Below, piece by piece: positions 21,301 to 24,300 of a DNA stretch of 64,000 bases (its first letter is position 1; each line of letters begins with the position of its first letter). Source of the stretch: Escherichia coli. GTDB lineage: Bacteria > Pseudomonadota > Gammaproteobacteria > Enterobacterales > Enterobacteriaceae. Position numbers: made by a program. Location: the NCBI RefSeq assembly GCF_022846255.1, contig NZ_AP025682.1. One strand, written 5' to 3'.

Positions 21301-24300
21301 CTTCGTTTTCTCCTTTCGCCCGTGCTTCCTGCGGGGTAATACCGGTAATTAATACTGCTCCAGGCTGGGGTAAATAGTCATCCGCGGGCTTGCAGTAAAA
21401 GACTTCGGGTTCGCCGATGACATTGAATTCGTTATCAGTGCGAATGGCTGCGAACTGTGCAGGGCGATCTAACGCGGGGTGCGTTCCAAAGGTTTCGTAA
21501 TCGTGAAACAAAAAGGTAGATTGTTGCTTACCGTCATTCATCATTAGGTTAAATCCGTTATTTCTGCTGTCTGCCAGAGTATCAAATATCACCGTGCTAA
21601 TCAGCTTTAGCGCGACAATTTGGCAGCGAGTGGCAACAGATCATGTCAGATAAAAATGAGATAGTAGTCACATTTTCTTGCACTTTATTCCAGCCAGTTC
21701 ATAAGTATTTCCGTAAAAAGAACAGCTATTTGAAACACCTGAGGGTTTGCTGTTGAAACGCCGTCTTATTATTGCTGCTTCTTTGTTCGTTTTTAATTTA
21801 TCGTCTGGTTTTGCGGCGGAAAACATTCCTTTTTCACCTCAGCCTCCAGAGATTCATGCCGGGTCCTGGGTATTGATGGATTACACCACCGGTCAGATTC
21901 TCACCGCGGGTAATGAGCATCAACAGCGCAATCCCGCCAGCCTGACAAAGCTGATGACGGGCTATGTCGTGGATCGTGCTATCGATAGTCATCGCATTAC
22001 GCCAGACGATATTGTCACCGTGGGGCGTGATGCGTGGGCGAAAGATAATCCGGTGTTTGTCGGTTCTTCACTGATGTTTTTGAAAGAGGGCGATCGCGTA
22101 TCGGTACGTGATTTAAGCCGTGGTTTAATTGTGGATTCCGGAAATGACGCTTGTGTTGCACTGGCTGACTATATTGCCGGTGGGCAACGGCAGTTTGTTG
22201 AAATGATGAACAACTATGCCGAGAAGCTGCATCTCAAGGATACGCATTTTGAAACAGTGCATGGTCTGGATGCACCTGGCCAGCATAGCTCGGCTTATGA
22301 TTTAGCTGTGCTTTCTCGCGCTATCATCCACGGCGAGCCCGAGTTTTATCATATGTACAGTGAGAAAAGCCTCACCTGGAACGGTATCACCCAGCAAAAC
22401 CGTAACGGGTTATTGTGGGATAAAACCATGAATGTTGACGGCCTGAAAACGGGTCATACTTCTGGTGCCGGGTTTAATCTCATTGCTTCGGCTGTAGATG
22501 GGCAGCGTCGTCTCATTGCAGTGGTAATGGGGGCTGACAGCGCAAAAGGTCGTGAGGAAGAGGCAAGAAAATTACTGCGTTGGGGTCAACAAAACTTTAC
22601 TACGGTGCAAATTTTGCACCGTGGGAAAAAGGTTGGTACGGAACGCATCTGGTATGGCGATAAAGAAAATATCGCCCTGGGAACGGAACAAGAGTTCTGG
22701 ATGGTGCTACCGAAAGCCGAAATTCCACATATCAAAGCCAAATATACCCTTGATGGTAAAGAACTCACCGCGCCAATTAGCGCCCATCAGCGGGTAGGGG
22801 AAATTGAACTTTACGACCGTGATAAACAGGTGGCGCACTGGCCGCTGGTTACCCTGGAATCTGTCGGGGAAGGCAGCATGTTTTCCCGGCTGAGTGATTA
22901 TTTCCACCATAAGGCCTGACCTTTCTTTTGCAGCAGACTGGCAGGAGTGCGAGTCTGCTCGCATAATCAACACTCATTCCTTGTGGTTTTAATATTGCAA
23001 CTATACTGTATATAAAAACAGTATTAATGGGGGCGTCATGAACTACGAGATTAAGCAGGAAGATAAACGTACCGTTGCAGGTTTCCATCTCGTTGGCCCG
23101 TGGGAACAGACGGTAAAGAAAGGCTTTGAGCAGTTGATGATGTGGATAGATAGCAAAAATATTGTGCCGAAGGAGTGGGTTGCTGTCTATTACGACAATC
23201 CAGATGAAACACCCGCCGAAAAATTACGCTGCGACACCGTCGTGACGGTGCCGAATAACTTTACGCTCCCCGAAAACAGTGAGGGCGTCATTCTGACAGA
23301 AATTTCAGGTGGTCAGTATGCGGTGGCGGTGGCTCGTGTAGTCGGTGATGATTTTGCTAAACCCTGGTATCAGTTCTTTAATAGCCTCTTGCAGGACAGT
23401 GCCTATGAAATGTTACCAAAGCCCTGCTTCGAGGTTTACTTGAACAATGGCGCGGAAGATGGGTACTGGGATATCGAAATGTATGTTGCGGTGCAGCCAA
23501 AACATCACTAATTCATCTCAGGGCGGTGTGTTGACGCGAAGACCACTCTTTTTTTGAAAGCGAAAAGAGTAAGATGCGCCTTTCAAATTTTTCGCTCCTG
23601 CCGGGAAATTACACTGTTCCCGGTATGTCCGTCGGATAACTCAGAGGCGCGCCTTCTGGCCGACAGATGTGTTATGAGCGCTTTTAATCTTCATTACGGA
23701 GTTTCTGCGTGCGTGCCGATAAGTCATTAAGCCCGTTTGAAATCCGGGTATACCGCCATTACCGCATTGTGCATGGTACTCGGGTCGCGCTGGCATTCCT
23801 GCTCACTTTTCTCATTATCCGCCTGTTTACTATCCCGGAAAGCACCTGGCCGCTGGTCACCATGGTGGTGATTATGGGGCCAATCTCGTTCTGGGGGAAC
23901 GTTGTCCCTCGTGCCTTCGAACGTATTGGCGGTACGGTGTTGGGTTCGATTTTAGGTCTTATCGCTCTGCAACTGGAGTTAATTTCGTTACCGCTGATGT
24001 TAGTCTGGTGCGCGGCGGCGATGTTTCTTTGCGGTTGGCTGGCGCTGGGCAAGAAACCGTATCAAGGATTATTGATTGGGGTGACGCTGGCAATTGTTGT
24101 GGGTTCCCCGACAGGTGAAATTGATACGGCGTTATGGCGAAGCGGCGATGTGATCCTCGGCTCTTTACTGGCAATGTTGTTTACCGGTATCTGGCCACAA
24201 CGGGCGTTCATCCACTGGCGCATTCAACTGGCGAAAAGTCTGACCGAGTATAATCGGGTCTATCAATCTGCATTCTCACCGAACTTACTCGAACGCCCAC

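Follow-up and report, generated by a model that had tools for sequence, protein, structure and literature searches.

The DNA analyzed here is a 64,000-nucleotide stretch of Escherichia coli contig NZ_AP025682.1 (assembly GCF_022846255.1), referred to throughout as the window, and the element in question is the LexA operator (SOS box) TACTGTATATAAAAACAGTA that precedes sbmC (gyrI), the gene for a DNA gyrase inhibitor. The local gene order is sbcB (minus strand), dacD (21747–22919, plus strand) and sbmC (plus strand), followed downstream by yeeA and tmaR. The end of dacD lies 85 nt from the operator, and a gap of 14 nt (23024–23037) separates the operator from the sbmC ATG (23038–23040). The identity of the gene is clear: its open reading frame (ORF) scored 302 bits against the NCBIfam equivalog NF007451 (cut-off 179) over residues 1–157 of 157, its product matches the Pfam GyrI-like family PF06445 at 114 bits, and the region is 100% identical to that of E. 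coli FDAARGOS_497, where the RefSeq annotation reads dacD-sbmC-yeeA. The features of the locus are collected in Table 1.

Table 1. Features of the dacD–sbmC intergenic region and sbmC, in window coordinates
Feature	Position	Strand	Basis
LexA operator (SOS box) TACTGTATATAAAAACAGTA	23004–23023	.	Unique exact match; matrix score; identity to K-12 boxes
Operator spacer octamer ATATAAAA	23010–23017	.	ISEc53 target-site duplication in other strains; unoccupied in the window
sbmC (gyrI), DNA gyrase inhibitor, 157 aa	23038–23511	+	ORF; NF007451; PF06445; RefSeq annotation of identical sequence
Putative −10 TATACT	23002–23007	+	Overlaps left arm of operator; TA-rich hexamer kept across genera
Putative −35 TTGTGG	22981–22986	+	TTG conserved across genera
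Shine-Dalgarno GGGGG	23029–23033	+	Alignments
CRP-S core TGCGA-GTCTGC-TCGCA (TGCGAGTCTGCTCGCA)	22948–22963	.	Perfect palindrome, centre 22955.5
Hairpin directly after dacD stop	22929–22963	+	RNA fold −23.4 kcal/mol, z = −2.67 versus shuffles

The operator 20-mer occurs once in the window, on the plus strand, and in none of 100 dinucleotide-preserving shuffles of it. Its half-site cores are CTGT (23006–23009) and ACAG (23018–23021), exactly the CTGT-N8-ACAG arrangement that defines gammaproteobacterial LexA operators, and its arms, TACTGT and ACAGTA, form a perfect inverted repeat. Compared with the palindromic consensus TACTG(TA)5CAGTA, the site agrees at 18 of 20 positions, and both mismatches are spacer positions. 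A preliminary description of this DNA, made from the sequence, had reported a perfect LexA operator at 23004–23040, 15 bp before the sbmC start. The site is indeed there, the range given running from the box through the G of the sbmC ATG, and the distance is correct to within one base; "perfect" is accurate for the arms but slightly generous for the site as a whole.

The window was scanned with a symmetrized LexA matrix derived from the 18 E. coli SOS boxes in Table 4 of PMC3009722, from which either sbmC alone or both sbmC and umuD (leaving 16 sites) were omitted to avoid circularity. The operator scored 27.3 bits with the matrix lacking sbmC and 26.5 bits with that lacking both, and it was the top match in the window by a margin of 9–10 bits; set beside the matrix's own training sites, it ranks second highest. 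The site is statistically exceptional: the maximum matrix score in 200 simulated 64-kb sequences was 20.3–20.6 bits, and exact enumeration of the score distribution gives 1.5 × 10^-5 sites of at least 26.55 bits expected per window, or about 10^-3 per 4.6-Mb genome. The preliminary description had proposed such a scan and had presented the site as expected biology and a clean internal control. The operator stands far ahead of everything else, and with 26.5 bits set against a background of at most 17.3 bits, that framing is apt. As a positive control, it confirms the E. coli identity of the sequence and the placement of sbmC, and it shows a simple matrix scan separating a true operator from background. 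The second-best match, AGCTGTATTTGTCTCCAGTA (40435–40454; 17.3 bits, with 0.04 expected per window and about three per genome), is located deep inside the coding sequence of an IS150 transposase, without promoter context, and was rejected as an operator; the third-best (41361–41380) was likewise rejected, having a background-level score of 13.4 bits and no promoter context.

The operator is identical to characterized ones. In K-12 MG1655, the sbmC box (Baquero et al. 1995; also in PMC3009722 and PMC11228462) is the same 20-mer with the same 14-nt gap to the ATG, and the K-12 locus shares with the window its neighbours dacD and yeeA as well as the upstream CRP-S palindrome. Only three single-nucleotide polymorphisms distinguish the 118-nt intergenic region of the window from that of K-12, all of them outside the box (22994, A in the window versus T in K-12; 23025, T versus C; 23031, G versus A). 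The K-12 sbmC 20-mer was the top-scoring SOS box upstream of genes induced by ultraviolet (UV) light (PMC3009722), azidothymidine (AZT) was found to induce sbmC 5.7-fold with a 9.5-fold dependence on LexA cleavage as judged with lexA3 (PMC11228462), and the heterology index given for sbmC in the latter study, 2.8, is among the lowest values in its table. With reference to Baquero et al. 1995, sbmC is also included among the SOS genes in PMC5999292 and PMC6590174. A literature search for LexA chromatin immunoprecipitation or footprint evidence found nothing specific, and the supplements of PMC3009722 contain no mention of sbmC. The published work on the identical K-12 sequence supports LexA dependence, damage induction and dependence on CRP and Sxy for the sbmC promoter of the window by analogy. 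SOS induction of the gyrase inhibitor gene, which the preliminary description had taken as known, is borne out by the published LexA-dependent induction, by the identical K-12 operator and by the cross-genus footprint described below. None of this is biologically new, given that the textbook status of sbmC as an SOS gene goes back to 1995 and knowledge of its CRP-S/Sxy input to 2006.

The same 20-mer is also the operator of E. coli umuDC (K-12 umuD, checked in the genome sequence; PMC3009722 Table 4), and both operators rank near the top of the regulon in their agreement with the consensus. The flanks and promoter contexts of the two differ: umuDC has a sigma-70 "late" SOS promoter (PMC5999292), whereas sbmC was left out of the kinetic study in that paper because of a suspected alternative sigma factor and a biphasic response, and unlike umuDC it has a CRP-S activator site. 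Since the operator is identical to that of the late umuDC promoter, tight repression of sbmC would be expected by analogy. In Table 1 of PMC11228462, the heterology index is 2.1 for umuD and 2.8 for sbmC despite the identical K-12 20-mers, a small inconsistency inherited from the source cited there. Salmonella enterica sbmC is likewise damage-inducible and, as in the window, has one LexA box just upstream of the gene (PMC8072944). The boxes of subspecies arizonae and diarizonae, TACTGTATATAAGTACAGTA and CACTGTATATAAATACAGTG, score 23.7–24.0 bits, lie 16 nt from the start codon (two nt more than in the window) and differ from that of the window at outer and spacer positions.

Within E. coli, CTGT-N8-ACAG is retained in all of ten diverse strains sequenced across the region, and the operator variants among them (A to G at position 20, T to C at position 19, A to G at position 7) affect outer or spacer positions. 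A census of 5,417 E. coli genomes, in which 4,379 were typed by exact 30-mer searches and a further ~270 had partial coverage of the operator region, found the window allele in 2,737 genomes, an allele ending in CAGTG in 1,210, one ending in CAGCA in 324, a change just upstream of the box in 106 and a double change in 2. All five alleles retain CTGT-N8-ACAG.

To retrieve orthologs, a degenerate DNA pattern for the SbmC C-terminal peptide YWDIEMY was searched in a collection of species-representative genomes. This yielded 43 loci, and removal of one chance Flavobacteriaceae match and one locus without upstream DNA left 41 that could be evaluated. They represent at least nine genera, including Escherichia albertii, E. 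whittamii, Salmonella enterica arizonae and diarizonae, many Citrobacter and Enterobacter, Klebsiella spallanzanii, Raoultella, Lelliottia, Silvania and unnamed Enterobacteriaceae. In all 41, the highest-scoring LexA match of the 250 nt preceding sbmC outscores every other 20-mer in the locus (1,786–14,285 positions), and the box is 14–24 nt from the start codon. The orthologous operators score from 25.9 down to 9.5 bits. Among the 42 sites obtained when the window is included, 38 have ACAG as their right arm and 4 have CCAG; on the left, 25 have CTGT, 9 have GTGT (Enterobacter and relatives) and 8 have ATGT (the Klebsiella/Raoultella group). The information content at each position of the 28 distinct orthologous sites rises and falls with that of the E. 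coli LexA regulon motif (Pearson 0.73, p = 2 × 10^-4), so the positions that LexA reads are those that stay fixed, and in the cross-genus alignment the spacer DNA around the boxes has freely diverged.

These data bear on the possibility that the palindrome is simply chance AT-rich sequence with no regulatory role. AT-rich intergenic DNA does yield partial LexA-like matches, and the window contains two further CTGT-N8-ACAG matches, a total of three being reached by 4% of shuffles. A full 20-mer of this quality, however, is expected only 1.5 × 10^-5 times per window, the 20-mer is identical to characterized operators, and its position is kept in 41/41 loci across genera though the surrounding spacer DNA diverges. 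Conservation together with score effectively refutes the chance reading, which we regard as exceedingly improbable.

How the operator would act depends on the promoter beneath it. The cross-genus alignment contains four conserved blocks, namely the LexA box, a GGAGG Shine-Dalgarno sequence, a TTG together with a TA-rich hexamer, and a distal palindrome, and the third of these supplies the putative −35 and −10 elements in Table 1. They are separated by 15 bp in E. coli and 16–18 bp in other genera. According to tiling-array data (PMC3009722, Table 8), the UV-induced sbmC transcript would start about 100 nt after AGGCCTGACC, corresponding to approximately window position 23012, inside the box; if the CRP site is of class I and lies at −58 to −62, the start would fall at 23014–23017. 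With either estimate, the LexA box would cover both the −10 and +1 positions. A LexA dimer would bind the inverted CTGT and ACAG half-sites of the operator and, overlapping the −10 element and the transcription start, would exclude RNA polymerase and keep sbmC expression low. Upon DNA damage, RecA filaments would stimulate LexA self-cleavage, the operator would be vacated, and the SbmC (GyrI) then made would bind gyrase and limit gyrase-mediated DNA breakage. The exact −10, −35 and start site, and with them steric occlusion as the mode of repression, are predictions from the sequence. The stretch CTATACT bears a faint resemblance to a sigma-S-type −10 (C at −13); a sigma-S-specific −10 was rejected, as that C is not conserved outside E. 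coli. A consensus promoter scan with stricter rules did not report the proximal TTGTGG/TATACT promoter.

We judge that the sequence at 23004–23023 is the LexA operator of the sbmC promoter, an ordinary and already documented one, and that repression by promoter occlusion is the best-supported account of it, with a probability of roughly 0.95. Several points weigh against this assessment. The 15-bp spacing of −35 and −10 in E. coli is short, and the overlap of the box with −10 and +1 depends on a predicted start site rather than one mapped in this strain. The evidence for LexA-dependent expression is carried over from the K-12 literature to the present strain. About 770 E. coli genomes fall outside any counted operator allele, and because the orthologous loci share ancestry, the 41/41 corresponds to fewer than 41 independent observations. 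Finally, the operators of Raoultella ornithinolytica and R. planticola have a degenerate left arm and score 9.5–11.2 bits, and LexA control of sbmC may be weakened in such lineages.

LexA bound here might instead mainly control something else, for example by blocking read-through from dacD or by controlling an antisense transcript. Compatible with this are the closeness of dacD, which ends only 85 nt upstream and whose downstream hairpin has no T-tract, and a minus-strand promoter match, TTAATA-16-TATAGT (23027–23000), that overlaps the box in the promoter scan. Yet the box stays 14–24 nt from the sbmC start codon in every genus, the UV-induced transcript starts at about 23012 and runs into sbmC, and sbmC mRNA is itself LexA-dependent. 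A minus-strand match of this kind is what an AT-rich palindrome would be expected to yield, and promoter-like matches are only about threefold above shuffles. We therefore consider a principal role other than sbmC repression very unlikely.

Repression by LexA is only one input to the sbmC promoter. The CRP-S palindrome in Table 1 is centred 58 bp upstream of the operator centre, and its sequence is identical in K-12. It has the hallmarks of a CRP-S site, a 22-bp CRP-type palindrome with TGCGA half-sites and C6/G17. Cameron and Redfield 2006 (PMC1635313) reported that K-12 sbmC has a CRP-S-type site, sixfold induction by Sxy and an absolute requirement for CRP and cyclic AMP (cAMP), and sbmC is one of the validated examples among their CRP-S promoters; the TGCGA-N6-TCGCA arrangement with the diagnostic C6/G17 is present in the window too. 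Following Zheng et al. 2004, that paper assigns the sbmC promoter a class I mechanism. Unlike the competence genes of the CRP-S regulon, the sbmC promoter is additionally shut by a high-affinity LexA operator. The sbmC response has been described as biphasic, with use of an alternative sigma factor suspected (PMC5999292); RpoS and H-NS appear in the title of Oh et al. 2001 (cited in PMC6231494), and the titles of Baquero 1995 and Oh 2001 together describe a promoter responsive to stationary phase, RpoS and H-NS. The operator would gate a promoter that also needs CRP-S activation from ~58 bp upstream (CRP-cAMP with Sxy) and that responds to stationary-phase signals. The preliminary description was right about the role of the LexA box but silent on this composite, multi-input promoter (CRP-S/Sxy, RpoS and H-NS).

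The CRP-S motif was found in 38 of 42 sbmC upstream regions, with about 0.002 expected by chance per region. The centre-to-centre spacing of CRP-S site and box is 58–61 bp in Escherichia, Salmonella, Citrobacter, Enterobacter, Lelliottia and Silvania and 45–47 bp, about 14 bp closer, in the Klebsiella/Raoultella group, where the site is TGTGA-N6-GCACA with a canonical-type left half. The cross-genus data amount to a modest extension of what was known: a paired CRP-S and LexA layout throughout the Enterobacteriaceae, with two spacing classes and a left half-site that is degraded in some lineages.

The CRP-S site also forms the 3′ arm of the hairpin in Table 1, so that the sbmC activator site would double as part of a possible dacD terminator. 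The hairpin is moderately stable, has no T-tract and was not reported by a terminator scan; it is a possible weak terminator of dacD. A search of Rfam with 22850–23150 gave no match at E ≤ 1. A distal promoter match, CTGGCA-18-CATAAT (22938–22967), appeared in the promoter scan but overlaps the conserved CRP-S block and was rejected, CATAAT being taken as part of, or adjacent to, the CRP-S site; a second, distal sbmC promoter may nevertheless lie there. In the window, the Shine-Dalgarno sequence has G at 23031 and reads GGGGG, as opposed to GGAGG in K-12, in 8 other sampled E. coli and in 22 other aligned taxa, and this change may lower sbmC translation. The exact 53-nt haplotype of 22985–23037 is found in 384 of the 5,417 E. 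coli genomes.

In other strains, the spacer of the operator is the insertion point of a transposon. The ~270 genomes of partial coverage (roughly 5% of complete E. coli genomes) cover only part of the 53-nt operator query, and all three that were examined, plus two more found through a junction search, carry ISEc53 between dacD and sbmC, in either orientation. ISEc53 is a 1,885-bp insertion sequence (IS) of the ISL3 family encoding a DDE_Tnp_ISL3 transposase and a ClbS/DfsB-family DUF1706 protein. Its junctions read ...TACTGTATATAAAA–IS–ATATAAAAACAGTA..., that is, TACTGT ATATAAAA–IS–ATATAAAA ACAGTA (loci L055, L056, L063 and L064 at sbmC and L062 at umuD). Insertion duplicates the 8-bp spacer and leaves the LexA half-sites 1.9 kb apart. 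Strain AR_0013 also has an ISEc53 copy in its umuD operator, which is the identical 20-mer, and the insertion point there is the same. No ISEc53 termini were found in the 64-kb window, and its operator is intact, so this observation leaves the verdict on the operator unchanged.

When metagenome contigs were searched for the IS terminus, 52 loci were identified; adding six E. coli genome loci that carry the element brought the distinct left flanks to 16 (loci examined: L055–L057, L062–L064 and L065–L116). CTGT lies exactly 8 nt from the ISEc53 end in 14 of these 16, and the reconstructed empty sites with matching duplication all score 23.8–27.1 bits as LexA boxes. The targets include sbmC (among them the GGGGG allele of the window; L107 and L108), umuD and a dinD-type box, among others; the most frequent is a box 15 nt upstream of a DinI-family gene (PF06183), probably a plasmid copy. 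In one metagenome contig (L078), ISEc53 sits exactly in the IS150-internal site that gave the second-best match of our scan, with a flank equal to window positions 40405–40448. Of the two exceptions among the 16 flanks, one is a deletion derivative; the other is a weaker palindrome, ATGG-N8-ACAC (10.5 bits), probably the fimB insertion known in sequence type 131 (ST131). No LexA box was found inside ISEc53, where the best match scores 2.0 bits. A census counted 915 copies of ISEc53 in 665 complete E. coli genomes.

ISEc53 is inserted in the spacer of CTGT-N8-ACAG sites with duplication of that spacer. We lean toward the view that SOS boxes, the sbmC operator included, are specific integration sites for ISEc53, with either the transposase reading the LexA-box sequence or bound LexA guiding the transposase. 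In the searchable literature, ISEc53 is listed only in inventories and no description of LexA-box targeting was found, and an SOS-box-specific preference of a cargo-carrying IS is apparently undescribed. Insertion is predicted to disconnect sbmC, umuDC, dinD-like genes and plasmid dinI-like genes from their SOS promoters. If the view is correct, ISEc53 would be an unusual transposon that uses the binding sites of a global repressor as attachment sites, which would explain the presence of a colibactin-resistance-like gene beside "unrelated" genes in successful E. coli lineages and would predict lost SOS control of sbmC and umuDC in strains that carry it.

Taken further, the insertions in exactly the ATATAAAA octamer at sbmC, in both orientations, and in the identical umuD box of other strains could suggest that the sequence matters chiefly as an integration site and not as an operator. 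The octamer is unoccupied in the window, however, and the box is conserved in genera where ISEc53 has not been seen. Target status follows from being a LexA box, many different ones being used by ISEc53, and is an added property rather than an alternative function, the published data already showing LexA regulation. We accordingly give this possibility almost no weight and retain the reading of the site as the LexA operator of sbmC.

Farther downstream, past tmaR, the window contains a truncated EutP/PduV-family gene (25369–25551) and then a CP4-44-like island that extends to approximately 43500. The island comprises yeeW, a frameshifted cbtA, cbeA, yeeS, antirestriction, dynamin-family, patatin-like and RdcB-family genes and a copy of IS150.

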